From a virus (Duplodnaviria > Caudoviricetes), in the IMG/VR virus record IMGVR_UViG_3300036851_000068, positions 1,822 through 65,821 of that record: 64,000 nucleotides of DNA; one strand, written 5' to 3'. Below the pieces are notes generated by a model. That model did not search any database. It had not been told where the DNA came from and saw only the letters and a list, made by a program, of their open reading frames with translations. Shown in pieces: positions 14,043-38,561 of the stretch; position 1 is the stretch's first letter; every line of letters starts with the position of its first letter. The position numbers and the translations under genes were made by a program.

Positions 14043-14078
14043 TTGACGAATGGTGTACAAAGGCTATGATTAGTACAC
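14043..14078 (+). promoter_or_regulatory. sigma70-type promoter with operator copy 1 (GTGTAC-N14-GTACAC)
   Basis: TTGACG 14043-48, 16 bp spacer, TATGAT 14065-70; GTGTAC 14053-58 / GTACAC 14073-78. Confidence 0.8.
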
Positions 14079-14310
14079 AGGCCAACGACGATACACTGAA
14101 ATCCCGGCGGATACCGGGGGCAGCACCAGCAGCGGCCAAGTGAACAGCAGGCGGAAGGGACGACGCGGCAAGGGCCGCAAGCGGTACAGCCCAAAGTGGG
14201 CGCTGCCCGCAGGTAACCAAAACCCTGAGAAACCACAGACTTACAATCGGAAGGTACGCGCTGCGTGATACTACGCAGCGAGCGCCACACAACGAGAGGA
14301 GATGATACCG

Positions 14311-14439
14311 ATGGGCGGATTGCATATCGAATGGAGCAACGTGAATCGAGCGTGGTTTCTGATGTGGTTTGACCAGGTGCTGCGAGTGTTCAATGAGAAG
14401 TCAGATGCTGAGATGGCATTTGAAGATTTGACTGCGTAA
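14311..14439 (+). CDS. small early protein (42 aa, not in ORF track)
   Basis: GAGGAG SD; MGGLHIEWSNVNRAWFLMWFDQVLRVF... Confidence 0.6.
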   Translation: MGGLHIEWSNVNRAWFLMWFDQVLRVFNEKSDAEMAFEDLTA

Positions 14440-14563
14440 GGAAGTCGTTCTGTAGGATAAAGGTACGTGCCGGGCTACACCCCTTAACCCTGTTAGGGAG
14501 GGGCCGTGTACAAAAGGTCGTTGACCCTGCCCGGCGAACGCTGAGCCTACGGAGGTATTTACA

Positions 14564-14707
14564 ATGGGTACATGGGAGATCAAGAGTACAGCGTCAGCCA
14601 AGGAGATCAATGCCTTGCGCACTATCGCCGAGGCTGAGGCTTTTGCGCATGGCGAGAATCCTGAAGATGTAAAGGTCGTGTTCGTTCTGGATGGTATCCC
14701 CGCCTGA
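14564..14707 (+). CDS. small early protein (47 aa, not in ORF track)
   Basis: GGAGGT SD; MGTWEIKSTASAKEINALR... Confidence 0.55.
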   Translation: MGTWEIKSTASAKEINALRTIAEAEAFAHGENPEDVKVVFVLDGIPA

Positions 14708-14817
14708 ATGAGCCAGTTGATGGCGAAACGTGCGCCGCGCGCGCACGTCGCGGGCAGCACCACATTCGGCCCACACTTGGCGTTAGCCAGGGTCGGGCAC
14801 AAACGAGGGTTGGTGAC

Positions 14818-15930
14818 ATGAATCTATTCAAGGCACACAGGCAGTGGGCAGTTCGCCCAGCGGATGAGCGGTTCCCGACGTTGCAGGCTTTGCATGCTGC
14901 TACTAAGGAATACGCTGACCAGGCGGGTGAGAAGCGAGTGCCCTGGTCTTCGCTTCGAGTCGAGGCGCAGGGCGAGGATGTACGGTTGGTAGGGAAGGCC
15001 AACGTGCCAGCAGCGCTGACACATTGGTCCTTCGGACAGTTGAGTTCAAGGGTTGAGGCACCGGCTGAGTATCTGCGGCGCTTGCCGCCGACACTGGCCG
15101 CACAGAATCTCAATTACGGGCTAGCGCATAAGTCCGACGAGAGTGAATCTGATGCGCAACTTCTCTTTCACAAGGACGGCGACCTGCTACTGCGCGCTAT
15201 CACTAGCGAGCGGTATTCGCGCATTTGGAATCACGAGGTAGCGCAGCGGTTGCTGAACCTTGAGCAGTATGGTTGGGAGCCAGCGGTGCCGGACACGCAG
15301 TTTGCACCGTCTATTGGTCAGATCGTAGCGCCAGCGCCTAACGGCAACACAGCGCTGTACGCCAGCGATCACGATATGTTCGCCTTCCTGATGAATCGCA
15401 GCAGCGATATTGCTGAGGCGGGCACGAACGAGCCTCTGAAGCGAGGCTTTATCGTGGAGAACAGCGAAGTCGGCGCGTCGGCGCTGAAGTTGACGCGCTT
15501 CCTCTACAGGATGATGTGCGGTAATCACATCATTTGGGATTCCTCGAAGGTCGTGGAGATCAGCCTGCGTCACATCGGTAAGGCGCGCGAGCGCTTTACA
15601 GACGAGTGGCTGGCTGAACTGAAGCGGTATTCGGAGGAGTCAGCCTCTGACGAGGAGGCTAAGATTGCAGCGGCTAAGACGCGCGTGATTGGCGCGACGA
15701 AGGAAGAGGTACTTGACCGACTCTTCTCAAACCGCTCGCTTCAAATCACACGCAAGGCGCTGACTGCCGGGTACGAGACGGCTGAGGTGTATAGAGACAC
15801 AGACGGCGACCCGCGCACGGTTTGGGGTATGGTGAACGGGTTGACACGACACAGCCAGACTCTCCCGTATGCTGACGCACGGACGCAGGTTGACCGCGCG
15901 GCAGGTAGGCTGCTGGAGATCACATTCTAG
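14818..15930 (+). CDS. DUF932/DUF945-family protein
   Basis: LRAITSERY, NSEVG, RMMCGNH, RHIG, TVWGMVNGLT, AGRLL. Confidence 0.8.
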   Translation: MNLFKAHRQWAVRPADERFPTLQALHAATKEYADQAGEKRVPWSSLRVEAQGEDVRLVGKANVPAALTHWSFGQLSSRVEAPAEYLRRLPPTLAAQNLNYGLAHKSDESESDAQLLFHKDGDLLLRAITSERYSRIWNHEVAQRLLNLEQYGWEPAVPDTQFAPSIGQIVAPAPNGNTALYASDHDMFAFLMNRSSDIAEAGTNEPLKRGFIVENSEVGASALKLTRFLYRMMCGNHIIWDSSKVVEISLRHIGKARERFTDEWLAELKRYSEESASDEEAKIAAAKTRVIGATKEEVLDRLFSNRSLQITRKALTAGYETAEVYRDTDGDPRTVWGMVNGLTRHSQTLPYADARTQVDRAAGRLLEITF

Positions 15931-16013
15931 GGTTCACGGTACGGGGCGCGCTGTCACCCGCCAGCGCGCTGACCGCTACACCCTAGCGGAATACAAAGAG
16001 AGGGGAGACTCAC

Positions 16014-16148
16014 ATGGCGATCACAGTTAAGGTGAAGGTTCAGGTTGACTCGGCCAATGGTGACCCTGATGCGATAGCGCTGGCAATGGAGAACGTAGCG
16101 ATCAAGCATGGGGCACTGGTGTTGACCAAGATAGTTACTCGGGAATAG
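16014..16148 (+). CDS. small hypothetical protein (44 aa, not in ORF track)
   Basis: GGGGAG SD; MAITVKVKVQVDSANG... Confidence 0.5.
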   Translation: MAITVKVKVQVDSANGDPDAIALAMENVAIKHGALVLTKIVTRE

Positions 16149-16360
16149 GGCTAACGCACAGGCGCAGGCGACTGGCGGTCGAACCGGCGAGCGCAGGTGC
16201 GCTACAGAGGAGAGTAAGGCCATACTTCCTGCCCTAAGCGGCGAGCGTGAACGGATGTCTGAGGCGCTAACGGCGCTTGCTCCCGTTCACGCGAAGCCGC
16301 ATGGTTGGCTGTCAAGGAAAAGTTTTCGCAGCGTGAATGCGGCCAGCAGTGCGGGGCAGT

Positions 16361-16413
16361 GTGTACAAAATGCGGGCCGTGTACACTGTTTGTAAAACCT
16401 CGTATGCTATAAT
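16361..16413 (+). promoter_or_regulatory. operator copy 2 plus extended -10 promoter
   Basis: GTGTAC 16361-66 / GTACAC 16381-86; TGcTATAAT with -10 at 16408-13; GGAGGTG SD downstream. Confidence 0.8.
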
Positions 16414-16432
16414 TGGGATGGAGGTGAGAGAT

Positions 16433-16612
16433 ATGAAAGCCGCGTGTAAGAGGTGTGGGAGCAGGGCGCGTCCGTTAGATGAGGAGCACATCTGTACACC
16501 ATGTCGCGAGTATGGTCGTTTCCTGACATGGTATCGAGAACAAGGTGAGCGGAAGGAGGCGCGCCGTGCGAATAGAAAACAAGACGGAGTACAGCACGAA
16601 GGCACTTCGTAG
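16433..16612 (+). CDS. small zinc-finger protein
   Basis: CKRC...CTPC; strong SD. Confidence 0.6.
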   Translation: MKAACKRCGSRARPLDEEHICTPCREYGRFLTWYREQGERKEARRANRKQDGVQHEGTS

Positions 16613-17171
16613 AGTCCTGACAGTCGTTCACCAAAGCATTGCTCGTAACCGTGGCCGACTTCCTCAGTGGAGGCGGCTGTTGTGCCGGGTTCTGTATCGG
16701 AGGGCACGATGGCCTAGTGTGGCAGGTCGGGCTTACATTGGTGGGTCAATCATGTACCTGCTGCCTTCGCGCAAGCAGGCCGACACGGTAGACTTTGCAA
16801 TCGTCGCATGGCACGAGTTACTTCATTGCTACGGGTTCGCCGAGGCTGACATACCGAAGACCTGGACTATGGCGAATTACAAGCGCTGGGATGGGCTGGC
16901 GCAGGAGTTGGGGGCTACGATGCCCTTGCAGCCAGCGAAGGGCAAGGCGGGGCCGGTAGAGCGCCAGGCGCAGCGTCTACGGAAGGCGCAGGCCGGACTG
17001 AAGCGGTGGCAGCGTAAGGCAAGGCTGGCTGGAACCAAGATCAAGCAGTACCGTAAGAAGGTTTCATACTACGAGAGGAGGGCTTCGCATGGGGAAGCAG
17101 AGGGATTGGGAATTGTGGCATCGTCAGATGGAACGCGAGAGGCAGTGGACTCCAACGGAGGGCAGTCCTGA
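16566..17171 (+). CDS. basic protein with HExxH zincin-like motif and C-terminal coiled coil
   Basis: GRAY...VAWHELLHCYG; AAGGAGG SD before GTG 16566. Confidence 0.65.
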   Translation: MRIENKTEYSTKALRRVLTVVHQSIARNRGRLPQWRRLLCRVLYRRARWPSVAGRAYIGGSIMYLLPSRKQADTVDFAIVAWHELLHCYGFAEADIPKTWTMANYKRWDGLAQELGATMPLQPAKGKAGPVERQAQRLRKAQAGLKRWQRKARLAGTKIKQYRKKVSYYERRASHGEAEGLGIVASSDGTREAVDSNGGQS

Positions 17172-17289
17172 TTGCCCGTCATGTGGGTCCTTCTTGCCGA
17201 ATGAGTATCACGATGTAGATTGTGCATACGTGGCTGAGCGCCGGGCAATTCAAGAGGCGCAGATGCGCATGGAGCGTGAGCGGTGGTAA
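17089..17289 (+). CDS. small zinc-binding protein
   Basis: CPSCG...H..DC; GAGGAGG SD. Confidence 0.5.
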   Translation: MGKQRDWELWHRQMERERQWTPTEGSPDCPSCGSFLPNEYHDVDCAYVAERRAIQEAQMRMERERW

Positions 17290-17543
17290 GGTTCGTGGCA
17301 GTTGCAGCGCTATCCTTCCTGGCTGGTGCGGGGCTGTGGGTCGCTAACGCGAGCATAGCCCTGCCTGCGTCTGATGCGCCACTCACGGCAGACGAGTGGT
17401 CGTTGTGGTCGGGAGAGGGCGTGTGGTATGCACACCTTGAGTTCTGTGAGTACGAGAACGAGAAGGACTGGCGAGTGTGCATGCGGCGCAACGGGCTTGA
17501 GCCGAACCCGACACCGTGGAACGTTGTGCCGACTTCGTTCTAA
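17283..17543 (+). CDS. small secreted/membrane-anchored protein
   Basis: Hydrophobic N-terminus; FC...WRVCMRRNG. Confidence 0.5.
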   Translation: MVRFVAVAALSFLAGAGLWVANASIALPASDAPLTADEWSLWSGEGVWYAHLEFCEYENEKDWRVCMRRNGLEPNPTPWNVVPTSF

Positions 17544-17554
17544 GGAGCGTGACT

Positions 17555-17884
17555 ATGGACCCGATGAGTCTGGAAGCCTGGCGCAAGGTGCAGCCAACGT
17601 TGCGCACAAAAGCACAGAGGCTGTTTGCGTACATTGAGGAACACGGGCCGCATACGTGTGATGAACTGGAGTTTCTGCTTACCATGCCTCATCAGACTGT
17701 GAGCGCAATGCTTAACATCATGATGGAGGCCGGGCTGGTGTTCAAGACGGGCAGCACACGTTTGACCCGGTACAGGCGCAACGCGAACATATGGGAACTG
17801 GAGTCGAGGCGTAAGGAAGGACGCTGGTTGAGTGATGGTGGTCAGGCGGCGTACCTAGCATTTCAAAAGGAGCGTGACGCATGA
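17555..17884 (+). CDS. winged-helix DNA-binding protein
   Basis: G..TCDELE..L.MPHQTVSA.L..M...GLV..TG..R.T...R.A.IW. Confidence 0.75.
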   Translation: MDPMSLEAWRKVQPTLRTKAQRLFAYIEEHGPHTCDELEFLLTMPHQTVSAMLNIMMEAGLVFKTGSTRLTRYRRNANIWELESRRKEGRWLSDGGQAAYLAFQKERDA

Positions 17885-18381
17885 AGAAGCAGCATAAGTT
17901 GACTTCAGAGCAAGCGCGCAAGATGGCAAGCCGTCCTCGCAGGCCGCGCACGATCAAGGTTGCTGTGCGTGACTTGTTGGAGTGCTCTGACGCGCAGGAG
18001 TTGAAGTCAGAGATGGAGGAATGGCGCGATAACATGGACGGGGCAAACATGACACACCTTCCAAAGTATGAGGAGGTGTCGGAGGCAGCGGACGAATGTG
18101 AGAACGTGGTGGATGAGTTGGAGCAGGGCTTGTCGAATCTGATTGAGGCACTGGAGAAGCACGATCAGGGCAAGACGTTATTGGATACGGCGCTGGAGGT
18201 TAGTAATCGCCGGGTGTCGTCACGAGCAGATCGTGCAGGTGAAATCAGTGAGCGCGTGGGTGCAGCGGCGGATGCTATCAAGGCCGAGTTCGGTCCTGAG
18301 ACTGAGGAGCATTCTCTGGCTGATGAAGTGGCTGAGGGCGCTGAAGCCGTGGGAATGGTTAACTTCCCAGGCATGTATTAG
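17881..18381 (+). CDS. acidic helical hypothetical protein
   Basis: AAGGAG SD; ELKSEMEEWRDNM. Confidence 0.65.
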   Translation: MKKQHKLTSEQARKMASRPRRPRTIKVAVRDLLECSDAQELKSEMEEWRDNMDGANMTHLPKYEEVSEAADECENVVDELEQGLSNLIEALEKHDQGKTLLDTALEVSNRRVSSRADRAGEISERVGAAADAIKAEFGPETEEHSLADEVAEGAEAVGMVNFPGMY

Positions 18382-18393
18382 GAGGAGCAGACG

Positions 18394-18579
18394 ATGAAGG
18401 TACCTATCAAGTTCGATGAACTGAGGTTCGAGCCGGGGCAGTATGCTGACGGCCCTGGCCGCGTGACGTTCAGCCTGCGCGGGATTGACCTGTTTGAGAT
18501 ACCGATTATGGCGCAGGCAAACGAGTCTTTCCGCCTGAAGATTCAGGGAGATATTCATATCGTGGTTGAACCGGCATGA
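18394..18579 (+). CDS. hypothetical protein
   Basis: AGGAGGAG SD. Confidence 0.6.
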   Translation: MKVPIKFDELRFEPGQYADGPGRVTFSLRGIDLFEIPIMAQANESFRLKIQGDIHIVVEPA

Positions 18580-18582
18580 GTA

Positions 18583-18755
18583 ATTCGGCGGCGCGTAAGC
18601 GCACGGAAATTGTGGGCAGTCGTGTACAGACCGAGGGAGCGCGGCCCTCTCCGACTGGCTGGGGAACGAACGTGGAATCTGCGCCACATGCTGAGGGTTC
18701 CCGCCGAATAGATTCGGGTTGGGTCGTAAAGCATGGCCTAACCCGCGTTCCTGTG
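18583..18755 (+). ncRNA. candidate structured RNA (multi-branch fold plus trailing hairpin)
   Basis: ATTCGGCGG/CCGCCGAAT closing stem; internal GCGC-GTAA-GCGC, CAGTCG/CGACTG, GGGAAC/GTTCCC; then CGGGTTGGGTC..GGCCTAACCCG. Confidence 0.4.
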
Positions 18756-18813
18756 GATGTACTGATAGACCATCCTGATGCGGACGAGGTGCCTTGTGGT
18801 AGCACCACTAACG

Positions 18814-19017
18814 ATGAGCAAGACGAAGTGGCTGGGCAGCAGAAAGGCAAAGGCCAAGTGTCGCCGTGCGGGGTGCGGAGAAAGGATAACGATGCTTGCT
18901 GATTATTTCGGGGACCCGTATTGCAGCCGGGTGTGTTTGAGGATTCACTTGAATATCCCGGAGCCGGAGAATGACAGGTTTCGTGCGAGTACCTTGGTGA
19001 AACGTTATGGCGGGTAG
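18814..19017 (+). CDS. small zinc-finger protein
   Basis: CRRAGC...YCSRVC. Confidence 0.55.
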   Translation: MSKTKWLGSRKAKAKCRRAGCGERITMLADYFGDPYCSRVCLRIHLNIPEPENDRFRASTLVKRYGG

Positions 19018-20069: not shown

Positions 20070-20267
20070 ATGAACAGTAATCGTATTGGGGAGATCAGGC
20101 TGGAAATCGAGCGCTTGCTTATGGAGCATGAGCGCATAGCGAAGAAGTTGGGTAGGCGCGTTCCCAGGTTCAATTCGCGAGTGGCAAAGAAGTTCGGGGT
20201 GAGCCGACAGCGCGTGGGCAACATAGCGCGGGCAATGGGGTTAACAACCCCCAGGGAGAAGCGGTAA
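20070..20267 (+). CDS. small HTH DNA-binding protein
   Basis: VAKKFGVSRQRVGNIAR helix-turn-helix. Confidence 0.7.
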   Translation: MNSNRIGEIRLEIERLLMEHERIAKKLGRRVPRFNSRVAKKFGVSRQRVGNIARAMGLTTPREKR

Positions 20268-23200: not shown

Positions 23201-23682
23201 TCAGGATGCACGGATGCGGTGGGCGTTGAGCGAGGAGGCGGGTCGATGAAACTGTTGTGGTTTCTAATAGCCAACGTTGCGGCAATAGCCGGACTGTTGC
23301 TTTACGTAGTGCTGGATACGCTGCGCCGGGAGCGCAAGGTGCGCAAGCAAGAGTTAGCACAGTATAAGGCTGCGAGGTTGGCACAGTGGCAGGAAAATGA
23401 GAAGGGAATGAAGCGTGTGGCCGCACAGGGTTGGCACGGTGCGCTCAAGGTTCGCATGACGGTGCCCGAGATGCGCAAGTACCTGGATGAGACTATCGAG
23501 GTGTTTAAGAAGGATGCTTACTGAGGAGTTGAAGAAGTGAGGAAGTGTCCTTCGTGCAAAAAGGCGCTGGCCGTGCGCATACTGCATTGGTTGTTCCTGT
23601 TGAACGTGCCGCGAGGTGCGCGGGTAGCCTGCTTGGACTGCGGCTACACCTGGGATGATTGGGATGCGGAGGTGGTGAATTG

Positions 23683-25217: not shown

Positions 25218-26507
25218 ATGTTACGACGTTGTTCTTGATTTGTTTCGTGCTTTTTCAGGCTATAAGTCTGGTGACGGCGTTGGAGGGACGACGATGATGA
25301 AGACGGTATACATTCCAGTTCACTACGGTAGCGGTGGCGATGCAATACTTCCTGAGCCGTTGTTTGGGATTAAGGCTGATAGCGAGAAGGAAGCGCGGGT
25401 GATTCTTACCTGGTGGGCAAGGGGACGACGCGAGAAACTGTATTGGGATAATGCTCACTTGGTGCCTGTGGTGACAGTGATTAGTAGCGAGGAAGGGAGT
25501 GAGAACAATGGGTAAATATCCTCATGTGATGTATGTGCTGCGCGAGGCAGACGGCGATGAGCACTTCTTCTCAGCACAAGCACAGTTGAAGTCTTTTGCT
25601 GTGCCGGACGACAAGATCGTGGTAGCAAAGTACGTGTTAGAATCATTTGTGACTGTCACAGCGAACGTCAGTGGGAAGGAGGAAAGGGTATGACGATGTT
25701 GCTGGGAGCATTCGGTATTGGACGAGGGAACTGGCCTGCTGCGCGAGCACTGGGCCTAAAGTTTGACTTTGGGCATGACGTATGGGACATCGCTGAGCCG
25801 GGCTATGAGCGCGTGGTGGGCCGGTACGGTATGGACGACTTGCAGCCTGGTGTTCACACTGAAGCGGAACTTGGTGAGTGGGCTAAGGAGGTTCGGAGCG
25901 AGGGCCTGATGCCCTGTACATCCTGCATTCCATCGTTCTTAGGGTCGGTGGTTTCGACAGTGGGCGAGTGGTGTGGGAAGCATAGCGTGAGCCTTGGCGT
26001 GCAAGCCTACCACTACAGTCCGCGCATATACTCGGACATCGAGGTACTACTTCAGCGGATAGGGACCGGCATTCGCTTGCGCCACTACATGGGCTGGTAC
26101 GGCGTGGCCGATTCTGTATATCCTGTCTACTCATCACAGGCACAGTGGAAGCCGAAGAAGCCGTGGGAGATCAGATTCATCCGGTGGCAGTACAGGATGA
26201 TGAGATGCAGGTTGCTGGTCTTCTTCCCCTGGAATGAGCAGGCGCTGAAGGCTCTGGTATGACCACGATGAGCATGGCAGAGGTTCAGGAGAAACTGGCT
26301 AAGGCTAAGGCCACAGTGGTCGAAGCCTACGAAGCCTTTCAGGTCCACAAGAAGAGATGTCCGACATGCAAGTGTGGAGGCAGGTGCCAGAAGCGTCAGG
26401 ACATGCTGTTTGAGGTTGGTCAACTGCACATGATGGTGAGCATGGTGGAAGTGTGGTTGAACGGCTATCGTGAGAGGCAAGGGCGGGGCATCTAGGAGGT
26501 GATTTGG

Positions 26508-26660: not shown

Positions 26661-26827
26661 CAGGACCGTGGCGCGTGCATAGGCATTAGCCGAAAAGGGT
26701 AGTGTGGACTCTGGCCTACCTCTAACGCAGCGCCATAGAAGGGCAGGGCCTGGGCCTGGAGCGATTATGCCGGATGGGCTATCGCCTTTGGAGCCTGGGC
26801 CTTGTCATTTGTGGGAGGTGGGATGCA

Positions 26828-27082: not shown

Positions 27083-27950
27083 CCCTGGGCTGTGTGGATA
27101 AAGGGGCAGAACTGTACACAGGGGGTTCATTAGCGGGCCTTGGAAGGGCATAATAGACCCTTGTAAGGGGGCACAACAGGGGGTGCAAAGTGTGGTACAC
27201 TTGTACACAGGTGGGCCTGGGACTCGGGGTAAAACCCTCGTCCCACGCCCTGGTATCAACGCCTGATGCGAGGCAGGTATAGGACCTGGGCGCATAGAGA
27301 GAACCCTCGTGGATACAGGCGCTTAGGCATCCCGAGTCCAAGAGATCAGGAAGCGCCGCGAGTAGAGCAAAGTGTACACAGGCAGGGGTTGTACACAGGG
27401 GGGGAGGCAATGGGGGGCAGCGGGGGAGCGGTACTCCGCCCAGCCCCTCACCCCACGCGCCGCACCCATGTACCCCAGTGTCCATAGGGACACCAAGGCC
27501 CAGCACCCACAGCATGCAGCACAGGGCACAGCAGGGCCGTGGTGAGTACGCAGGGGCAGGACCCGATACCAGCAGGGGTACCACAGTGGCGGGCCTTGGA
27601 GCCGCGAGCCTCTATGGACGTGGAGCAGGACCGTCCCCCCGTTCAGAACTTGCTGCGGGGCGGGCGGGCAGGACGATGCCGCGTTCTCGTAGCGTAGCAA
27701 GAGGGGTGTGTACACTTTTGAGCCAGTGTCGTGCAAAGGGTGTGTACACTACTTGCAGGGTGTGTACAGTTTTCGGAGAGGTATCCGGGATGTTAGGCCA
27801 CGGTCCAGCAGCAGGGGCCTGAGCCGCGAGCGCAGTTGAGAGGAACCGGCCCGGCAAGCCTGCCGGTGAAACCGAACCTCTCGGGGACTTGCACAAAATG
27901 TACATGGATGTGTACAATAGATGGTAGGTGTACACAGGGGGTTGTAGCAG
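27083..27950. repeat. non-coding region dense in TGTACA/GTACACAG repeats and G-runs; candidate packaging/terminus or origin region
   Basis: About 870 bp without a credible ORF directly upstream of terS; at least 10 TGTACA-like boxes. Confidence 0.6.
27889..27935 (+). promoter_or_regulatory. terS promoter with operator copy 3
   Basis: TTGCAC 27889-94, 18 bp spacer, TACAAT 27913-18; GTGTAC 27910-15 / GTACAC 27930-35. Confidence 0.75.
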
Positions 27951-28547
27951 ATGGCAGACGATCAGAGCAAGCCAAAACCGCCGGTGCAAAAGAGGGTGCC
28001 GCGCGTATGGGATATGAAGCCGGACGAGCCTGCCAAGGCGTATTCCGCCTTCATGCTCTATCGGAGCCTCGGTGTCGGGCGTAAGTTAGCCGATGCCGCA
28101 GAGCGCCTTCACGTCCGGGTCTATGTGCTGGAGAAGTTGAGCCAAAGGTTCTCGTGGGCGTTTCGCGCAGATCAGTGGGATGCATGGGCCTTGCGGCAGC
28201 GGAGTCACAGCGCTGAGAAGCGTGTGCTGCGCGAAGCCGAGTTGGAAGCACGTACGATCAGCGACCTGGTGCGCATGACACGCATTCTCACAAAGCGCAC
28301 GATGCTCAACGTCATTCGTACAAAAGCAGCATCGTTGACTCCGCAGGGCGTAGCAACCCTGGCTGACATCGTTGTGAAGTTGAGCCGGTTGCAACGCGGC
28401 GAGCCTACTGACCGGCGCGAGAACATTGCGCGCAGCGCACGCGAGCGCGTGCGAGAGAAGTTGGACACTGTGGCAAAGACTCTCGCAGACCAGATCAAAA
28501 CAAAGGAGAAGCCGGGCGATGCGCCGCCGTCGAAAGAAGTCCACTAG
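27951..28547 (+). CDS. terS: terminase small subunit (putative)
   Basis: E..KAY.AF..YR.LG..R.L...W..RA..WD HTH-type N-terminus; lies upstream of terL. Confidence 0.7.
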   Translation: MADDQSKPKPPVQKRVPRVWDMKPDEPAKAYSAFMLYRSLGVGRKLADAAERLHVRVYVLEKLSQRFSWAFRADQWDAWALRQRSHSAEKRVLREAELEARTISDLVRMTRILTKRTMLNVIRTKAASLTPQGVATLADIVVKLSRLQRGEPTDRRENIARSARERVREKLDTVAKTLADQIKTKEKPGDAPPSKEVH

Positions 28548-28678
28548 GTTCGCTCGTGTATGCTGCCCTCTGTGCCGCGAGCGCGCAGAGCGCCTGTCGG
28601 CTATCAAGGCCGTGAAGATGTACGCCTGGCGCTGCACAAAATGCGGCGCAAAGTTCTGGACGGAAATGGACAAGGACG

Positions 28679-30055: not shown

Positions 30056-30071
30056 GGTTTCAACGGCGGGG

Positions 30072-30103
30072 GGTGTGTACAAAAAGTGTACACCGTACAC
30101 ACC
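30072..30103. promoter_or_regulatory. operator copy 4 (extended 9-bp inverted repeat)
   Basis: GGTGTGTAC-N14-GTACACACC, with an internal GTGTACAC. Confidence 0.75.
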
Positions 30104-30312
30104 AAAAGAAAGGACACTCTCGCGCCGCCCAATGTAGTGCAGTATAGCACACTGTCAAGTGATATTGCATCACTCTTTCGGAAACAGTACAGTATTGGTG
30201 ACTGTCGGAAAGTGTACACGGGAACAAACGTTTGCCTGTGTACGTTTTGAAAACGTACATAGATAGAAGATAAAGTGCTAGACTGTAAACAGCCTGGGCA
30301 GGAGGGGTTTCG

Positions 30313-33300
30313 TTGGCACGGAAGCGCTCGCTAGAGTCAGAACTGAATCAAGCCTCGAAGAACATCGGTAGGCGTGCGTCTGTCGGCAAGTCGGGACAGG
30401 GCGCTTACAGTCTTGTGCCCGTGCAGTCTTCACAGCATTTCCCTCTGAGATCACAACCTCGACCGTCGCAGCAGAACCTGTTGCGAGCGTATGCGGAGTC
30501 TCCGTGGCTGCACATCAAGATTGCACGGCTGGCAGCGTCATGGGCCAACGTACCATTCAAGGTTGTGGCTGAAGATGCGAAGGGCAAGGAGACGGACCTT
30601 CCTCGCGCGCACCCCCTGCACCTGCTGATGCGAAAACCGAACCCGGCGATGAGTGGCTGGGACTTGCGTTTCTTGACCGAGTTGTACATTCGCTCTGTTG
30701 GGGAATGCTACTGGCGCGTGCGAGGTAGTTCACTCGGGCGCGAACTGTGGGTGTATCCGGCCAACTGGGTTACGCGCGTGTTCGACCGGAATCGCCAGGT
30801 GTCAGAGTATCAGGTTGCGGAGACGCAGCCCGGTGGCGTGAATATCATTCGTGTTCCAGCGAGTCAGATGATTTGGTTGCGATCACCAGACCCGCTTGAG
30901 CCGTACAGCGCCGGACTTGGCGACGCGCTATCACTTGCCAGCGAGATTGATACATTTGAGTTGGCGTCTGAGTCTGACCGGCGTTTTTTCGAGAACGATG
31001 CATCACCACCTGGTGCGCTCGTAGTGCCGGGACGTTTGACACAGGACGAGAACGACCGGATGCGCGACGACTTTCAGCGCAAGCAGGGCGGGCCGGAGAA
31101 TCAGGGCAAGCCGATGCTGCTGTGGGGCGGCATGGATTGGAAATCGTTCCGTGCGGGCCGTAAGGAAATGGATTTCATTGATGGGCAACGGTATCTGCGC
31201 GACGTGATTATCGCGGGCGTGCACAAGCACGTTCTTGGAATCACGGACGATGTAAACTTCGCGGCGGCTAAGGCGGCTGACTACCAGGTTAGCAAGTGGG
31301 AGTTAGCGCCGCGCGTTCCGTGGTGGGAAGATAACACGGACAAAATTGCGATCATGTATGACGAGCGCGCGCATGTGCGATGGGATAACCCTGTGCCGCA
31401 GGACGAGCAGATCGAATTGCAGAAGGCAAACGAAGGATTGCTGCGCGGCGCGATAACACGAAACGAGTGGCGCGTTATCAACAAGATGGAACCTCTGCCT
31501 GACGACATCGGCCATGTGTTCATCATTCCGCCGGGCCTTGTCGTTGTACCTGCGGATGAAGCGGCGCAGATGCCTGTGGTGTCACCACAGATTCCACCGG
31601 AGGCGAGGCCGGAGGGCGGCACGCCTGAAAATAGGCCACCGGCAGAAGACGACGACAAAGAACGTGGGAACCCTTTATCCGTTAAGCACACACCCGGAGG
31701 CCATGAGCACGATCAGTCTTCACACGGAGGCGAAGGCGGGGGCGGCGGCGATGAGGGCGACGGTGGCAAAGAGTCTAGCACCGGGAAACTGAGCGGCAAC
31801 AAGCCAATTGTACACGATGGCGGAAACGACGCTAACGTTAACGAATGGAAACCCGATGTGTGGAGTGCCGGAGATGTGTTGCTGGATGATAATGCGACCA
31901 TTTTTTACCACAAGAGCGGAACTGTTCTTGTTGGAGGTCCAGGGTCGCAGCATTCTGAAGTTATCTACATAGCGGGTAAGAAGCCTTCGTATGAAGATGA
32001 AGGTTCACACGTTATGTGGACAAGTAGGCGCGGTAATGAAAAGAATACGTTGTATTTTGTTATGACAACGGAGCGAAACGAATGGGATGCTACATTTGCT
32101 TTCCTAGAGGGGCTTGCTGAACGTGGCGTAAATGATTCGGTGCAGGCAATAATCGGTGGAGATATAAAACCAGTTAGAGAATGGTTGAAGCAGGGAAAGG
32201 CCGCTGCGTTGAAGGCATGGCGCAAGTATAAGGCACCAGTATTCGACCCACTTCATCCTAGTTGGCGGCGCGTGTTGGAGCAAGTTAGTGGTGCAGTGAA
32301 GACAGACGACACAATGGACGTGCTGCGACCTATCTACGAAGCCGTGATGGAATCCCGTATCTCAGATGTGAAAGAAGAACTGGGCATCAACGTGGGCCTG
32401 AGCCTGACGGACCCGGACCTTCTTGCATATCTAAGAAGCGCAGCGGGCGAGCGCATTACGCGAGTGGACGAGAACACACGCGATCAGATTCGTGAGGCGC
32501 TTGAGGAAGGCATTCGTGCCGGTGACAACTTGCGCGGGCTGGAAGAAAGACTTAACACGGTGTTTGACATTGCCAAGGAGCACAGGGCCGAAAGAATCGC
32601 GCGCACGGAAGTCATTGATGCGTCGAACGCGACAGCCTATGCATCGTACCAGCGTAGCGGTGTGGTTGAGGGCGTGGAGTGGCTGCTTGCGCCTGACTAT
32701 GATGGCGAGGAAGACGATTTCGAATGTGAGGCTATCGAGGAAGCCGGGCCGGTGCGTGTGGGTGAGGAGTTTGTTCCTGGCATTGCTTGGCCGCCAGGTC
32801 ACCCGAATTGTAGGTGCGCCATTGCTCCCGTGGTAGCGGGAGATGAACTTGCTGAGATCGTGGATGCGGAAGCCGTGGTCGAGGACCGCATGGGCGCGCG
32901 CGGGATGGTTGAGGACCAGAAGCGTGAAGCGGTTGAGAAGGAAGGATTGCCAGTGTTACCCATAACGTCTGAGGAGAAACAGCGAATAATAAAGCAGTGG
33001 AACGAGGAGATTGTTCCCCAGTTCAATCAGTCGCGCAAGGATTTGCGTGCGGCAAGGGAGATACAAGGCGGCAGTATCTCACAATCTGTTGCTGATGAAA
33101 ACCGTGCGATGGAGAAGTTTTTCGGTAAGTGGGCCGAGGTAACGTTTGAAGATATGAAGCGCTGGTTGCCGGAGAGTGTGCAGACTCCTTTGTACAAGGG
33201 ATTTAAGATTACCAGTAAAAAGGGAGCCTTTTACGAAGAAGGATTCATACACATAAATCGGGAACTGGCGCTTAGCAAGATGAGTCAGTTTAACGAGGTT

Positions 33301-33993
33301 GTTAATGGCCTTGGTCAAGTGCAGGATAATATTGACCTTTGGCACATGCAGACTATATTCCACGAAGTGAGTCATGCGATGTTTGACTGGTCCGCTAACA
33401 TGGTGCGGTTCTACAACGAGGGCGGAAAGTCATTGATAGAGGCCGTCAACGATATAATGGGTACCCAGCACACTAGAACATGGCTAGAAACCGTGGGCAT
33501 AAAGGTGCAGCCGGAAGCAATAGAGTCATTCTTGTACGGAAAGGATTCATCGTATTCGGGCTACGTTCAGAACTGGGATAGATGGTTCCAGGGCTTCAAC
33601 GTGAACATTCGCGACGAGCGCGTAGCGTCTCGAATATATGCCTCGATGGTCGTGGACGATGCGAACGTTCCTCAGTTGACGAGAATTGAGGGCGCAAGCG
33701 GCGGGGCACCGTTACTTCGACAGTTCAACATGGACCGCGTGTTCGATTCGATTGAGCCTGAGATTCGTTCTTCGATGAGCGATGAAATTCAGGCGGCATG
33801 GGATAAGACGATTGGCGGCGGGCAGACGCGGGCGATTCGTGAAGAAGCAAAGCGTTCATGGACTAGTGCGTCGAAGAACTGGCTTGGTGAGCAAGATGTG
33901 GTTGGTAACGATCAGATAGATGCATGGACGAAGCAAGTCAAGGATGCCGTGCAGAATCGTTTTGATAAACTGCGTGCCGAGGGGAGCATCTAA
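30313..33993 (+). CDS. portal protein fused to MuF (SPP1 gp7-like) domain and C-terminal HExxH metallopeptidase-like domain
   Basis: HK97-type portal (LMRKPNP, FFENDASP, ITRNEWR); MuF RAERIARTE and HPNCRC (aa ~830); IFHEVSH...E (aa ~1017); TTG start with GGAGG. Confidence 0.88.
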   Translation: MARKRSLESELNQASKNIGRRASVGKSGQGAYSLVPVQSSQHFPLRSQPRPSQQNLLRAYAESPWLHIKIARLAASWANVPFKVVAEDAKGKETDLPRAHPLHLLMRKPNPAMSGWDLRFLTELYIRSVGECYWRVRGSSLGRELWVYPANWVTRVFDRNRQVSEYQVAETQPGGVNIIRVPASQMIWLRSPDPLEPYSAGLGDALSLASEIDTFELASESDRRFFENDASPPGALVVPGRLTQDENDRMRDDFQRKQGGPENQGKPMLLWGGMDWKSFRAGRKEMDFIDGQRYLRDVIIAGVHKHVLGITDDVNFAAAKAADYQVSKWELAPRVPWWEDNTDKIAIMYDERAHVRWDNPVPQDEQIELQKANEGLLRGAITRNEWRVINKMEPLPDDIGHVFIIPPGLVVVPADEAAQMPVVSPQIPPEARPEGGTPENRPPAEDDDKERGNPLSVKHTPGGHEHDQSSHGGEGGGGGDEGDGGKESSTGKLSGNKPIVHDGGNDANVNEWKPDVWSAGDVLLDDNATIFYHKSGTVLVGGPGSQHSEVIYIAGKKPSYEDEGSHVMWTSRRGNEKNTLYFVMTTERNEWDATFAFLEGLAERGVNDSVQAIIGGDIKPVREWLKQGKAAALKAWRKYKAPVFDPLHPSWRRVLEQVSGAVKTDDTMDVLRPIYEAVMESRISDVKEELGINVGLSLTDPDLLAYLRSAAGERITRVDENTRDQIREALEEGIRAGDNLRGLEERLNTVFDIAKEHRAERIARTEVIDASNATAYASYQRSGVVEGVEWLLAPDYDGEEDDFECEAIEEAGPVRVGEEFVPGIAWPPGHPNCRCAIAPVVAGDELAEIVDAEAVVEDRMGARGMVEDQKREAVEKEGLPVLPITSEEKQRIIKQWNEEIVPQFNQSRKDLRAAREIQGGSISQSVADENRAMEKFFGKWAEVTFEDMKRWLPESVQTPLYKGFKITSKKGAFYEEGFIHINRELALSKMSQFNEVVNGLGQVQDNIDLWHMQTIFHEVSHAMFDWSANMVRFYNEGGKSLIEAVNDIMGTQHTRTWLETVGIKVQPEAIESFLYGKDSSYSGYVQNWDRWFQGFNVNIRDERVASRIYASMVVDDANVPQLTRIEGASGGAPLLRQFNMDRVFDSIEPEIRSSMSDEIQAAWDKTIGGGQTRAIREEAKRSWTSASKNWLGEQDVVGNDQIDAWTKQVKDAVQNRFDKLRAEGSI

Positions 33994-34361
33994 TGGCTAC
34001 GCTGCCGGAGATCATGGGAATGGCGGATGGCTCGCGCGAGAATGTGGTGCGTGCCATTAAGACACTGGAGACGGAATTTGATGTGACGGACTACAACAAC
34101 GTTGCGGTGCAGCGCGCCATGAGTGTGTTGCAGCGTATGCTCAGCGGATGGGATGTGCCGGGGCGCGCGAAGGGTCATGCGCCGAAGCGTCGCCTGCGCA
34201 TTTGGTTCGGGGACAAGAAGATGAAGCACATTAACGCACTCGGGCGCGAACACACACGGCTTGAGCGCCATATGGAAAACAAGTTGCAGCGTGTCTTTCA
34301 GAGCCAACGACGCGCGGCCATTCGTACATTGCGGCAGCAGGCCAAGGAACGAGGAGAATAA
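33993..34361 (+). CDS. hypothetical protein coupled to the portal fusion
   Basis: TAATG overlap; helical, basic C-terminus. Confidence 0.6.
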   Translation: MATLPEIMGMADGSRENVVRAIKTLETEFDVTDYNNVAVQRAMSVLQRMLSGWDVPGRAKGHAPKRRLRIWFGDKKMKHINALGREHTRLERHMENKLQRVFQSQRRAAIRTLRQQAKERGE

Positions 34362-34363
34362 CG

Positions 34364-34777
34364 ATGCGAGGACGATATAACCTTATATTCTTATATGCTG
34401 GGGCCATTCACATGATGTGGGCCATCCTGCTTCTATTCGGCAAGGAAGTTTTGTATTCTACACCGGCTTCTGCCATCGCTGGCCTGGGACAGTACGGCGC
34501 GGCGGCGGTACTGTTCGTTTCCTCATTGCTTGGAGTCATTGGTTATCGAAAGTCAGGACTCATCGAAACGCTTCTGCCACAGCAGGCTATTCTGATGCTT
34601 AGCGCAGCGGCCAGCCTGCATGCGTCTGCGTTGAGTCAGTATGCCGATGGTATTCCTAGGCCGTTCCTGTTCATATTTGCAGATCAACTACCTACTATCC
34701 TGGCGGCAGTTCTACATTTGGTAGCACTCTTGTACGAGTCGCGCGAGTCGATTCTCATAAAGAGTGTCAAACTATGA
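34364..34777 (+). CDS. four-TM membrane protein
   Basis: Four hydrophobic helices; GAGGAG SD. Confidence 0.65.
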   Translation: MRGRYNLIFLYAGAIHMMWAILLLFGKEVLYSTPASAIAGLGQYGAAAVLFVSSLLGVIGYRKSGLIETLLPQQAILMLSAAASLHASALSQYADGIPRPFLFIFADQLPTILAAVLHLVALLYESRESILIKSVKL

Positions 34778-35142
34778 TAGACAAGTCATTACTTGAACTT
34801 ATCATCGCGGGCGTAGGTCTTGTGTCGGCCATGATAGCGGTTGCTCGCGTTGCAGTCTCTAGTCTTGCGGATACGATGCGTACAGTTATAATGCAGCAAT
34901 CGAAGCGCGATGATGAAACGCGGTCCGCAGAGATTGTCCTGCGACAGGAAATACTGAGGCAGCAGGAACGGATTGCAACGGTCATGGATAATCACCTGTC
35001 TGGAATATCAGCGGCACTAGGTAAAATCACGCTGACACAAGACTTGATTGTAGACCGCTTGCTAGATGCTGTGGTCATTCCAAAACAGGGATTGAAAGCG
35101 ATCACCTTAGAGCCACGCGGCGATAAGGATGAGAAGTCATGA
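34774..35142 (+). CDS. single-TM coiled-coil protein (holin/XhlA-like)
   Basis: N-terminal TM; DNHL motif. Confidence 0.5.
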   Translation: MIDKSLLELIIAGVGLVSAMIAVARVAVSSLADTMRTVIMQQSKRDDETRSAEIVLRQEILRQQERIATVMDNHLSGISAALGKITLTQDLIVDRLLDAVVIPKQGLKAITLEPRGDKDEKS

Positions 35143-35309
35143 TAGTTTTACGTAGACAATGGTGGGACGCACGCATTCATGCTGAAGGATGTGAGTGATG
35201 CAAGTCTATGTGGACCGCGAGGGCACTCATTACCTGCGCGAGAAGCCAGGAGCACGATGGGAGTCATGCAACGGAACTGTCATTGAAGATCATGAGGAGG
35301 TAGTACAGG

Positions 35310-35645
35310 ATGGAAGTGCTGGGCAGCGCACAGGGCCTGGACAACACGGACCTAACCCTGACAATCGACATAGCGGAATCGGCAGGCGTAAAGGTTTCGC
35401 AAGTGATGGTCGCATACAGCGCAGCCGTGACCGAAGACGTAGACGTGCTTCTCGACAGCCTGCTGGGGGAACCATTCGACGTACTGCTCGTGAAGTTCGT
35501 ATTGGAAAGTAACCGCTACGGTGTGTGGATTCCCGAAAGTGAATGTGTGTTGGTGGCCGGTGACAAACTGGTCATTACTGCGCCTGCGGGCGGCGCGGGC
35601 ATCACTGCAACGATCACAGTGTACGGAATCAGGAGACTTGACTGA
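35310..35645 (+). CDS. small beta-rich virion protein (putative)
   Basis: GAGGAGG SD; L.AGDKL.IT pattern. Confidence 0.55.
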   Translation: MEVLGSAQGLDNTDLTLTIDIAESAGVKVSQVMVAYSAAVTEDVDVLLDSLLGEPFDVLLVKFVLESNRYGVWIPESECVLVAGDKLVITAPAGGAGITATITVYGIRRLD

Positions 35646-37792
35646 TGCCTGAGCCTGTTGGCTATTCTGGTGCGCCTTACATTGATGGAGTCAAACCCGT
35701 CTTCACCCAGGCGATGGCGGATGATTTGTATGTGAACGTCACTGGCGACGTTATGACAGGCTTCCTCACGCTGAACGCAGACCCGACTTCCGCGCTGCAC
35801 GCTGTTACTAAGCAGTACGCTGATGCGCTCATGATAGATCACCTGGCAGAAGGCGACCCACATCCGCAGTATCTATTGGTGGCCGAGGGTAACGCGGCAT
35901 ATGTCCTGAAGGCCGGGGACACTATGACTGGTGCGCTGACGATAGCGGTGGCTACTGGCGGGCAGTTGCTCACGCTGGCATCTTCGGGCGTTGGTGACCC
36001 AATCCTTCATTTCCTCAAGACGGGCGTGCAGGCGTGGGTCATAGGAATTGACGACAGTGATGCCGACAAGTTTAAGATAGCGTCCTCCGGTGCATTGGAG
36101 ACGGTCACTGCGCTAACTATAACAACGTCGAATCTAGTTGGCATAAATACGGCGACACCTTCTGGAAGGTTGGAAGTGCGCGGCGACGAGGGAATACTCG
36201 TAGGTCAGGTAGGGTCGTCTCGCGCCTTGGAGATATTGACTTCTGGCACGGTCTATAGAATTCGTTCGGCAGGCGGTGCAGCGGCAGACGACCTGCAAAT
36301 CATGCAGGGCAACACTGGAATACTGACGCTTCATACGACGGCTGTGGAGCGCGTGAGGATTCTCGCCGGTGGCGACGTTGGTATAGGAATCGCTGACCCA
36401 ACAATGTCGCCGAATCAAACGCGGAACGTGGCGATGTATGGGGCACCGACTGTTGGTTTGAAACTTATAGGTTCGCGTACCATAGAAGCCGACATTGCTA
36501 CGCTGTCGTTCATAAATAATCCTACAGGCACAACCTTCAATGAGTTGGTGCGTTTGGAGGGGGTGCGTGAGCAAGCCGATAACAGCGGTCTGTTGAACTT
36601 CTATGTAATGACGGCAGGTGCATTGACCGCGCGGATGCAGTTGACGACGGCAGGGAAGTTGAGGCTGTTCAGTCCTGCTGCGATAACGGTGGCTGCGGCG
36701 TCTCTGCCCCTTCTGTTGCAAGGTGGCGGTGGTGGCACGACAGATATTCTGCAAATAGAGACGGCTTCCGGCTTCAGGATTGCTACCTTCGATAGTGACG
36801 GCGACTTACTGTTTCGCGTAGATGAGTTGGCAAGCATCGGAGCAGCCGGAGCGAATAGGCCGACTGCCGTTTATGTAGTATCGCAGGTCGCAGTAGGAGT
36901 GAATGCCGATATGCCCGCGTCTGGTTTGCTGCGATTGGCCGGTAGTTCGACGCTGTTCAGCGCAAAGCATACCGGCACTGGCGGAGCGATGTTCCAACTG
37001 GTAGGTACTGCTGCGCTTTTCAATGACAACGCCGTACAGATAAGTCTCGCAGGGGCATTAGGAAACTACTTGGCGGCGAGTGCGACTGGCGGCCTGCCGG
37101 TGACCCTTAGCCCTGTAGGCGTGACGATAGGTTCGGCCATTACTAGCCCTCCAACGAACAAGGGTATGCTGCGTCTACTCTCGCGAGAGACTTCACTGGA
37201 AGCGTTGACTGGCATCGAGTTCTCGCAGGCACCGAACTACGGCTACAAGGTGGCGGTGCTTGATAACACGGTGTCAATGATATTTGCAAATCGCGAGGAT
37301 TCAGCGACATGGACAGAACTTATGAGATTGAAGGGAAGGGGAACTATAGAGACGACCGGAGCCGTTGGCAATACGGCGGCTATTTTTGGCGCAGGAGGTA
37401 ATGGCGTTGCGCTTGTTCGAAGTTCTCCGAGTGTGGGCTTGAACGCTTACTACAACGCAGGATGGAAGGCTATTTTTACTGGCGCTGCGGCTATTCTCGG
37501 GGGCGATGGGGGCGGCGGTTTTGTTATATACACTGCTCCAAGTGCTGCTACGGATGCTGCATTAACGTTGACGGAGAGATTGGTTCTGTCGGCTGGCGGC
37601 AGCGTTGTAATAGGAGCATTGGCTGACTTAGCATCAACCGCTACTGAGGGGTTTGTATATATCCCTTCGGATGATGCTGCGCCGACTGGTACCCCTAATG
37701 CATTTACTGGAAAGGTAGCAATGATGTTTGATAGAGCGAATAACAAGTTGATGGTATATGATGGCGGTTGGGTAGGAATAACGTTGGCGTAA
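35645..37792 (+). CDS. fibre-like virion protein
   Basis: YVNVTGDVMTG, HAVTKQYAD, DPHPQY, KAGDTMTG, repeated VGIG/ERVRI fibre motifs; G/A/T-rich. Confidence 0.8.
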   Translation: MPEPVGYSGAPYIDGVKPVFTQAMADDLYVNVTGDVMTGFLTLNADPTSALHAVTKQYADALMIDHLAEGDPHPQYLLVAEGNAAYVLKAGDTMTGALTIAVATGGQLLTLASSGVGDPILHFLKTGVQAWVIGIDDSDADKFKIASSGALETVTALTITTSNLVGINTATPSGRLEVRGDEGILVGQVGSSRALEILTSGTVYRIRSAGGAAADDLQIMQGNTGILTLHTTAVERVRILAGGDVGIGIADPTMSPNQTRNVAMYGAPTVGLKLIGSRTIEADIATLSFINNPTGTTFNELVRLEGVREQADNSGLLNFYVMTAGALTARMQLTTAGKLRLFSPAAITVAAASLPLLLQGGGGGTTDILQIETASGFRIATFDSDGDLLFRVDELASIGAAGANRPTAVYVVSQVAVGVNADMPASGLLRLAGSSTLFSAKHTGTGGAMFQLVGTAALFNDNAVQISLAGALGNYLAASATGGLPVTLSPVGVTIGSAITSPPTNKGMLRLLSRETSLEALTGIEFSQAPNYGYKVAVLDNTVSMIFANREDSATWTELMRLKGRGTIETTGAVGNTAAIFGAGGNGVALVRSSPSVGLNAYYNAGWKAIFTGAAAILGGDGGGGFVIYTAPSAATDAALTLTERLVLSAGGSVVIGALADLASTATEGFVYIPSDDAAPTGTPNAFTGKVAMMFDRANNKLMVYDGGWVGITLA

Positions 37793-37830
37793 GCAAACTA
37801 AGTCGCGCTAAGGCGCGGGGAGGCAAGACA

Positions 37831-38214
37831 ATGGGAACAGTTACGGAGATCGAGAGAGTACAGTTGGACCTGGCGGCACCAGCCTACAGGCTGACTGAGG
37901 GCGACAGGAAGGTACTGGGTACGGAAGACCCAGTGATGGGAGCCGTACGCGCAACGCAGTTCGTGTTGAGGACTGCGGTGACAACGCACTTTGCCCAGGG
38001 GATGGAGAATCACAACGCTCGCATTTGGAGCCGGTGGCAGAAGGTCTTGGACGGTGACTCCAGAGAGGTTGAGGTGAGCAATCCGGACTTTGAGTGGTTA
38101 TGGAAAATCTACTCGGCTGACTCACTGAAACTGCCTGCGGCGCTGTCGTCCTGGCGGGTGCTGTTGGAGAACCATTTGCTGGACGTACGGGACAGCCTGC
38201 GCAAGCAAGAATAG
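37831..38214 (+). CDS. hypothetical protein, possible fibre chaperone
   Basis: GGAGG SD; follows fibre gene. Confidence 0.5.
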   Translation: MGTVTEIERVQLDLAAPAYRLTEGDRKVLGTEDPVMGAVRATQFVLRTAVTTHFAQGMENHNARIWSRWQKVLDGDSREVEVSNPDFEWLWKIYSADSLKLPAALSSWRVLLENHLLDVRDSLRKQE

Positions 38215-38508
38215 TTGTTGGAGGGTACCTCTGTGAAGGTGAAGGGTCGTTATTTATATTGGTATAAAGGGCGCTGGGTGACGCGGCAAAGAAAACATGA
38301 GTTGAAATACCCGCAGAAGTTTTATGCGCAGATGGCTACGAGAGAAGCCGTAAAATGGGGTCTGATAAAGCGTGGTCTTTGTGAGGTGTGCGGGATTAGT
38401 AAAACACAGGCACATCACGTTACTTATACGCCACCATTGAAGATAAGGTGGTTATGCGCGAAGCATCATCGTGAGGAGCATGGCCGGAAGCCTGGAGCAA
38501 GAAAATAA
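38215..38508 (+). CDS. HNH-type endonuclease-like protein
   Basis: CEVCG...QAHH..Y..PL.IRWLCAKHH..EH; AT-richer than flanks. Confidence 0.75.
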   Translation: MLEGTSVKVKGRYLYWYKGRWVTRQRKHELKYPQKFYAQMATREAVKWGLIKRGLCEVCGISKTQAHHVTYTPPLKIRWLCAKHHREEHGRKPGARK

Positions 38509-38522
38509 AATGACGTGAGGAC

Positions 38523-38561
38523 TTGACGACCAGGTGTACTTTGGCGGTAGACTGTACACAG
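38523..38561 (+). promoter_or_regulatory. capsid-operon promoter with operator copy 5
   Basis: TTGACG 38523-28, 19 bp spacer, TAGACT 38548-53; GTGTAC 38534-39 / GTACAC 38554-59. Confidence 0.75.

Follow-up and report, generated by a model that had tools for sequence, protein, structure and literature searches.

The spacing and distribution of a palindromic motif

What acts on a palindromic DNA motif that recurs, at a single exact spacing, between the gene blocks of an uncultured phage? The DNA in question is a 64,000-bp stretch, hereafter the window, that spans bases 1822-65821 of the 65,821-bp IMG/VR record IMGVR_UViG_3300036851_000068, which is classed as linear and approximately 80% complete (CheckV). 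The motif, GTGTAC-N14-GTACAC, occurs in five exact copies in the window, at 14053-14078, 16361-16386, 27910-27935, 30075-30100, and 38534-38559, and in none of 100 dinucleotide-preserving shuffles. Searching the full record yields these same five copies only, and no instance of the reversed control pattern. A first-pass annotation of this DNA had claimed five perfect copies with identical spacing, all of them intergenic. The copies and their spacing are borne out, as is their location according to the gene calls of the present analysis, which place all five in gaps between plus-strand genes, that is, within the 5,477 bp (8.6%) of the window that is non-coding. Each copy stands at the start of a gene block: in order, small open reading frames (ORFs) with a DUF932 gene, a zinc-ribbon ORF with a series of ORFans, terS and terL, the portal block, and the protease and capsid genes.

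In an exhaustive scan of hexamer inverted repeats with gaps of 0 to 24 bp, GTGTAC/GTACAC is the only pair present in at least three copies. When its occurrences are sorted by gap, 14 bp accounts for five copies and each other gap from 0 to 40 bp for no more than one, and the divergent and direct arrangements of the two hexamers occur at most twice each. An alignment of the five sites together with their 20-bp flanks has 66 columns, of which those of the 12 arm positions, and no others, are invariant; both the N14 segment and the flanks vary. A mobile repeat element was considered as a source of the copies and is ruled out by this variable N14. The centre-to-centre separation of the arms is 20 bp in five of five copies, corresponding to approximately two helical turns, and both arms are thus expected to lie on the same face of the DNA.

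Relaxing the search to allow as many as two mismatches recovers 15 sites where 1.94 are expected, none of which carries exactly one mismatch. Four of the ten sites with two mismatches fall in the gap upstream of terS, one (14566) straddles the start of a small ORF at 14564, and five are in coding DNA. Among the degenerate copies proposed earlier, those at 27094-27119 and 27183-27208 indeed have two mismatches each, and that at 27372-27396 has N13 spacing. Pooling the ten arms of the exact copies gives an extended half-site, T-GTGTAC-A, in which the preceding T and the following A are each present in 7 of 10 arms, and hence a full-site consensus of T-GTGTAC-A, N12, T-GTACAC-A. This 8-mer half-site (TGTGTACA) occurs 15 times compared with an expectation of 1.7, and 12-13 of these occurrences are intergenic.

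The combination of two-fold symmetry with a non-conserved N14 segment fits a symmetric DNA-binding oligomer better than it fits an RNA or a promoter element. We hold with moderate confidence that the motif constitutes the operator set of one two-fold-symmetric, sequence-specific DNA-binding regulator. Such a regulator is most likely encoded by the phage. It might act as a dimer of dimers, or as a single dimer whose reading heads are far apart, and the 14 bp between the arms would not be read by the protein.

Copies of the putative operator relative to promoter-like sequences

A scan for σ70 consensus sequences finds, at copies 1 and 3, one arm inside a core promoter match and the other near the expected start. 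In both cases the -35 and -10 hexamers are separated by 16-18 bp as in σ70-type promoters, and both are identified as consensus matches only. Copy 1 (14053-14078; GTGTACAAAGGCTATGATTAGTACAC) lies over TTGACG(14043-14048)-16-TATGAT(14065-14070), which agrees with the consensus at 10 of 12 positions, such that the left arm occupies the promoter spacer and the right arm lies directly past the -10 box. Copy 3 (27910-27935) is overlapped by TGCACA(27890-27895)-17-TACAAT(27913-27918), a 9/12 match whose -10 box coincides in part with the left arm, and 15 bp separate the end of the motif from the start of terS at 27951. Copy 5 (38534-38559) begins 5 bp after a TTGACG (38523-38528) and holds a TAGACT (38548-38553) within its N14 segment; these boxes are read by eye, because their 19-bp spacer exceeds the limits of the scan. 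This copy is 40 bp upstream of a protease-like gene (38600), after which the major capsid gene (40016) comes next. The sequence context reported to be common to copies 1 and 5 (cTTGACGa, GGTGTAC, GGC, and a terminal GTACACAG) can be seen in both.

The remaining copies lie upstream of their nearest promoter-like sequences. Copy 2 (16361-16386) is followed after 19 bp by TGcTATAAT (16405-16413), which by eye is an extended -10-like sequence. The next ORF, a zinc-ribbon ORF of 59 aa with the pattern CxxC...CxxC (16433-16612), begins 46 bp downstream of the copy. Copy 4 (30075-30100) is situated 19 bp past the terL stop and contains a third half-site within it (GTGTACAC at 30086-30093), and the consensus scan places a promoter-like TTGAAA-18-TAAAGT (30247-30276) 147 bp farther downstream. 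Thus, the initial view that four copies overlap or abut σ70-like boxes is retained in part: the scan flags copies 1 and 3, the boxes at copies 2 and 5 are apparent by eye and were not flagged, and that of copy 4 is 147 bp away. The gap between terL and the portal gene holds additional half-sites (30212-30260), consisting of GTGTACAC at 30212-30219 and a perfect 21-bp palindrome (TGTACGTTTTGAAAACGTACA; 30239-30259) that covers the -35-like TTGAAA preceding the portal gene and has the same GTAC core at another spacing. Downstream of copy 1, an isolated half-site on the plus strand (GTGTACAAAA; 14506-14511) occupies the gap that separates two small ORFs.

If a protein binds these sites, its position at three of them, namely copies 1 and 3 and, as read by eye, copy 5, would be over the -10/+1 region of a σ70-like promoter, as expected for a repressor that excludes RNA polymerase. 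Copies 2 and 4, at approximately -46 and -195 from the likely starts, could instead serve in activation, in looping, or as roadblocks. Repression at the three promoters is the best-supported mode of action, whereas the proposal of a master switch between lytic growth and dormancy is possible but unsupported.

The location of the copies at gene-block starts could also be explained if the motif were itself a promoter element, recognized by a phage-modified RNA polymerase or by a phage sigma factor. The presence of a -10-like TACAAT or TACAAA within the left arm and of a strand-specific ACAG(G) extension of the right arm is compatible with this alternative, although perfect dyad symmetry is unexpected in a promoter. 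Moreover, the offset of the motif from both the σ70-like boxes and the start codons varies. The distance from a site to the next start codon ranges from 15 to 232 bp, which argues against a translational role as well as against a fixed promoter-element role. Finally, there is no sigma factor or RNA polymerase gene among the 75 ORFs, of approximately 110, that were scanned for protein families (57 with Pfam, the rest with PHROGs only). We therefore consider a promoter element to be quite improbable.

The half-site array upstream of terS

The densest accumulation of half-sites occurs in an 868-bp non-coding gap (27083-27950) between a DUF6527-like ORF and terS, where two ORFs (27266-27487 and 27478-27822) were judged by eye to be non-genic. 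Nine or ten half-sites are found here, and they include two blocks of four in opposite orientations. The first block consists of four copies of TGTACACA (at 27113, 27202, 27373, and 27390; 27113-27397) and the second of four copies of TGTGTACA (at 27707, 27741, 27761, and 27909; 27707-27916), with the last half-site of the gap (27929) closing copy 3. A 15-mer, TGTACACAGGGGGTT, is exactly duplicated at the two ends of the gap (27113-27127 and 27929-27943), 816 bp apart. The additional half-sites here and in the gap between terL and the portal gene might recruit more of the regulator, in which case the late packaging and head region would be the most heavily controlled portion of the genome.

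A cluster at this location invites another explanation. The cos and pac sites of phages commonly lie directly upstream of terS, and plasmid Rep proteins recognize iterons in monomeric form and inverted repeats in dimeric form. By analogy, TerS or a replication initiator might bind the half-site array as a packaging site or an origin, while a dimer of the same protein binds the palindromes elsewhere. The coincidence of the array, with its two opposed blocks, with the usual location of pac or cos keeps this explanation alive, and TerS itself (27951-28547, plus strand), whose identity in the first-pass annotation is confirmed by a PHROGs match (phrog_6299, E 1.5e-17), is an alternative candidate for binding the adjoining array. 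However, four of the five perfect palindromes are located away from the packaging site, and three of those four are on or beside promoter-like boxes. Whereas packaging sites would be expected to be confined to the vicinity of terS, full copies are also present at 14053, 16361, and 38534. With regard to an origin, the GC skew exhibits no switch: the plus strand is richer in G than in C over the whole window (skew +0.09 to +0.30).

Repeat arrays with a similar word occur in two viral contigs, designated L016 and L174. At a contig end (L016:100-420; L174:1-270), each contains dense (C)CTGTGTAC / CTGTTTAC repeats with a period of approximately 10 bp, and that of L016 is beside genes that appear by eye to be primase- or helicase-like. 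These arrays, whose word is similar, may represent origin iterons, and to that extent the CTGTGTAC arrays favor a role in replication; neither contig, however, has a protein in common with the window phage (tblastn, E 1e-4). Taking these observations together, we judge binding by TerS or an initiator for packaging or replication to be unlikely, and an operator set continues to be our preferred interpretation of the motif.

Two full GTGTAC-N14-GTACAC sites, 42 bp apart, are also present in a third, unrelated viral contig (L026:1635-1702). In a motif scan of viral contigs, nearly all loci have a single site, as chance would give.

Potential for RNA structure

Inverted repeats between transcription units might act as RNA hairpins, for instance as terminators or processing sites, or they might be functionless repeats. 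The stem formed by copy 4 can be extended to 9 bp. In general, however, the motif specifies 6-bp stems closed by 14-nt loops, with predicted energies near those of shuffled sequences (z +0.04 to -2.1) and with no U-tracts. Nor is there compensatory variation: beyond being complementary, the arms have the same sequence in each copy. RNA folding of the 303-nt centre of the gap upstream of terS gives no more structure than that of its shuffles (z -0.54), and Rfam gives no match at gathering or relaxed thresholds. Intrinsic terminators, which combine a G+C-rich stem with a T-run, were called on the plus strand at none of the five sites, and the hairpins are weak. Hairpins or functionless repeats are thus a very improbable account of the motif.

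Candidate binding proteins

A single clear DNA-binding candidate emerges from the scanned ORFs: a small winged-helix protein, MarR_2-like and 109-122 aa in length, that is encoded on the plus strand at 17516-17884 and that we consider to be a weakly supported candidate for the regulator. Its gene lies in the block downstream of copy 2, as would suit an autoregulated factor. A winged helix-turn-helix protein had been proposed earlier at 17555; the winged helix is retained, with a MarR_2 score of 25.9-26.2 bits that is just below the cutoff of 27 bits. No close homologue of the protein is found among 5.8 billion clustered proteins, although 509 distant relatives, themselves small winged-helix proteins, are detectable; among those aligned, 39 of 48 match MarR_2 and 0 of 48 match GntR. 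An AlphaFold (AF2) model (pLDDT 86.9) contains a helix-helix-helix-wing core with a long helix on its N-terminal side and another helix on its C-terminal side. The best fold matches to this model in the Protein Data Bank (PDB) are MarR and PadR-like chains, all with E values of at least 1.2e-3.

Other proteins provide fewer leads. The helix-turn-helix protein suggested at 20070 has marginal matches only (Pfam HTH_23, E=0.1; PHROGs anti-repressor, E=0.003). An 86-aa ORF at record positions 959-1219 appears by eye to be winged-helix-like. ESM Atlas look-ups of the ORFans at 16545-17171 and 25690-26262 gave no DNA-binding lead. The former is a 208-aa ORF that contains a HELLH motif and whose C-terminus is very basic. 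In ESM Atlas it groups with hypothetical proteins of viruses, and SprT-like proteins, which make up 15% of one cluster, are a weak lead. The binder may also be encoded in the missing fifth of the genome.

Alternatively, the sites might be bound by a regulator of the host, such as a YtrA-type repressor of the GntR family, which would make the phage gene blocks subject to a host signal. In its GTGTA/TACAC half-site and its two-turn geometry, the motif resembles the B. subtilis YtrA operator (PMC8060467) and the approximately 24-bp motifs of YtrA-type proteins (PMC6746942), and no matching phage regulator is evident among the 75 scanned ORFs. The spacing, however, is 3 bp off that of YtrA. Furthermore, across 94 genomes from the phylum to which the nearest prophage relative belongs, the motif occurs 9 times compared with 5 for the reversed control, with no more than two instances per genome, and the inspected instances sit in likely coding DNA. 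This frequency and location provide no sign of a host regulon. The comparison covers a single candidate host phylum, and its power is low, as a regulon of one or two sites would escape it. The earlier suggestion of a host factor as the binder therefore finds its predicted regulon unsupported in these genomes, and we view host control as improbable.

A more expansive scenario, and a distant prospect in our estimation, is that one regulator with reading heads two turns apart holds the entire stretch from 14 to 40 kb, from the early ORFans to the capsid gene, under a single switch. The binder would then be either an ORFan of unrecognized fold or a hijacked, YtrA-like envelope-stress repressor of the host, the terS array would nucleate a higher-order repressing complex, and a dormant or carrier state would be tied to host physiology. 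If so, a phage that lacks a recognizable CI or integrase would gain access to such a state.

Relatives of the phage and the case against an operator set

The relatives that were compared are all distant. Relatives of terL were found at two loci in viral contigs (44-47%) and at three in metagenome contigs (45-49%), and those of the capsid gene at two loci in viral contigs (55% and 33%) and at one in genomes (62%, L121). The last of these, the closest named capsid relative, belongs to an Armatimonadota metagenome-assembled genome, Ca. Fervidifonticultor tertius, and the phage lineage is probably a poorly studied one from soil. Scaffold 29 of that genome carries a prophage-like region that is syntenic with the phage from terS to the tape-measure gene, with protein identities of 29-67%; this region is 70% GC and has no GTGTAC motif. 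Nearer capsid relatives (85-88%; P0002-P0005) exist on 58-kb contigs. One DNA sequencing run, labelled as a soil metagenome and probably derived from the source sample, contains the window sequence, and its contigs are identical to it, with no variants.

Several observations weigh against the motif being the operator set of one regulator. The relatives compared (terL, 44-50%; capsid, 33-62%) have neither the motif nor any repeated hexamer palindrome of their own. Promoter-like matches overall are near the number expected by chance (9 versus 8.2, and 15 versus 11.3). The right arm exhibits a strand-specific AG(G) extension: the plus strand has eight instances of GTACACAG and a single one of its complement. 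An operator that is symmetric throughout would not require such an extension; this asymmetry may be a mere reflection of the G-rich coding strand. No GntR/YtrA, CI/Cro, integrase, ParB, or sigma factor protein is found among the 75 scanned ORFs of the approximately 80% complete record, and within that scope the absence of a visible CI or integrase remarked upon in the first-pass annotation holds. Lastly, MarR dimers usually span half-sites that are approximately one helical turn apart, rather than two.

Gene content of the window

The window is approximately 55% GC, its plus strand carries all convincing genes, and it contains no tRNAs. According to family scans, genes for a lysozyme and a metallophosphoesterase are located at the start of the record, and a replication and nucleotide block extends to 13,940. 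This block encodes a ClpP-like protease, a primase, a nucleoside 2-deoxyribosyltransferase, a dATP/dGTP diphosphohydrolase-type domain, a DNA polymerase, a UvsX/RecA-like protein, a trypsin-like peptidase, a Cas4-like nuclease, and RuvC. A DUF932 gene is present at 14818, and a series of small ORFans occupies 16.4-27.1 kb. The head and packaging genes comprise TerS (27951), TerL (28679), a portal-MuF fusion (30313), the protease-like gene (38600), and an HK97-type capsid gene (40016), and are followed downstream of the capsid gene by tail, glycosyltransferase, and FtsH-like genes.

The nucleoside 2-deoxyribosyltransferase gene (PF05014, E 2.8e-14) and a gene for a dATP/dGTP diphosphohydrolase N-terminal domain (PF18909, E 2.2e-9) are neighbours at 4900-5810, which hints at manipulation of the nucleotide pool or at a modified DNA base; the scanned ORFs include no PurZ-like gene. 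The portal-MuF fusion is a single ORF of 1,226 aa (30313-33993), in which a portal domain (residues 72-389) is joined to a Mu F-like domain (724-837). Outside the head module there are three protease-type genes, which encode the ClpP-like protein (1668-2468; phrog_94), the trypsin-like peptidase (9892-10581; PF13365), and an AAA+/FtsH-like protein (61683-63377) with a HEAGH motif that is recognizable by eye. A nucleotide-sugar epimerase and two glycosyltransferases are encoded amid the tail genes (52535-57092).

Implications and comparison with known systems

If the motif is an operator, its copies map the transcription units of an uncultured phage, and it offers a precise 26-bp bait with which to fish out the regulator. 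It would also define a compact and portable repressor/operator pair of the type used in synthetic circuits.

The most similar bacterial sites are those of YtrA-type regulators. As described in PMC6746942, operators of YtrA-type GntR proteins are approximately 24 bp in length, with distal half-sites two helical turns apart and approximately 62 Å between the recognition helices, and that of X. citri is GGTG-N16-CACC. The B. subtilis YtrA operator is given in PMC8060467 as AGTGTA-13bp-TACACT, with a regulon of two sites. The YtrA-type sites and the phage sites are alike in being palindromes of 24-26 bp with short distal half-sites approximately two turns apart and an unread centre, and the phage and B. 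subtilis YtrA have exactly the GTGTA/TACAC pentamer in common (PMC8060467). The first-pass annotation was correct in noting a resemblance to the YtrA GTGTA..TACAC box at another spacing: the arrangement in the phage is GTGTA-N16-TACAC, as opposed to 13 bp in the B. subtilis operator (PMC8060467), which gives it the length class of the X. citri site. The systems differ as well in extent, since the phage has five promoter-region sites in addition to half-site arrays, whereas the bacterium has two operons. Moreover, the GntR winged helix (PF00392) is absent from the 57 Pfam-scanned ORFs of the approximately 80% complete record. With a spacing that is 3 bp off and no GntR protein found, the YtrA-like site cannot be filed as a YtrA operator.

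The operators of P1 C1 and of RK2 KorB are sets of sites for a single repressor. These systems, together with the stoperators of cluster A mycobacteriophages, share with the phage the genome-wide use of one short intergenic motif, situated both on and off promoters, through which one protein controls many units. According to PMC9283540, stoperators are asymmetric, are bound by a monomeric repressor, and have one orientation relative to transcription. The phage site, in contrast, combines perfect inverted symmetry with a long spacer, and its five full copies are far fewer than the stoperators described there.

RinA-type activators of staphylococcal phages provide a parallel for the array upstream of terS, as PMC3152322 describes a regulator-bound promoter region directly upstream of terS that governs the operon for packaging and morphogenesis. 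The many sites directly upstream of terS in the phage are reminiscent of this arrangement. The resemblance is limited, however, by the presence of the motif at gene blocks that are not late, and no RinA/ArpU-like protein was detected. In geometry, a counterpart is found in the p4 sites of phi29, which are hexamer inverted repeats approximately 15 bp apart that are bound by a dimer, with p4 repressing early promoters and activating the late one. In this comparison, the sequences are unrelated and no p4 homologue was found. Among the matches listed in a literature search for GTGTAC/GTACAC operators, there was no phage operator of this kind. Because genome-wide operator sets are already known in phages and plasmids, the motif opens no long-standing question; it is a genuine, statistically extreme, and spacing-exact feature, and a new example of a known strategy.

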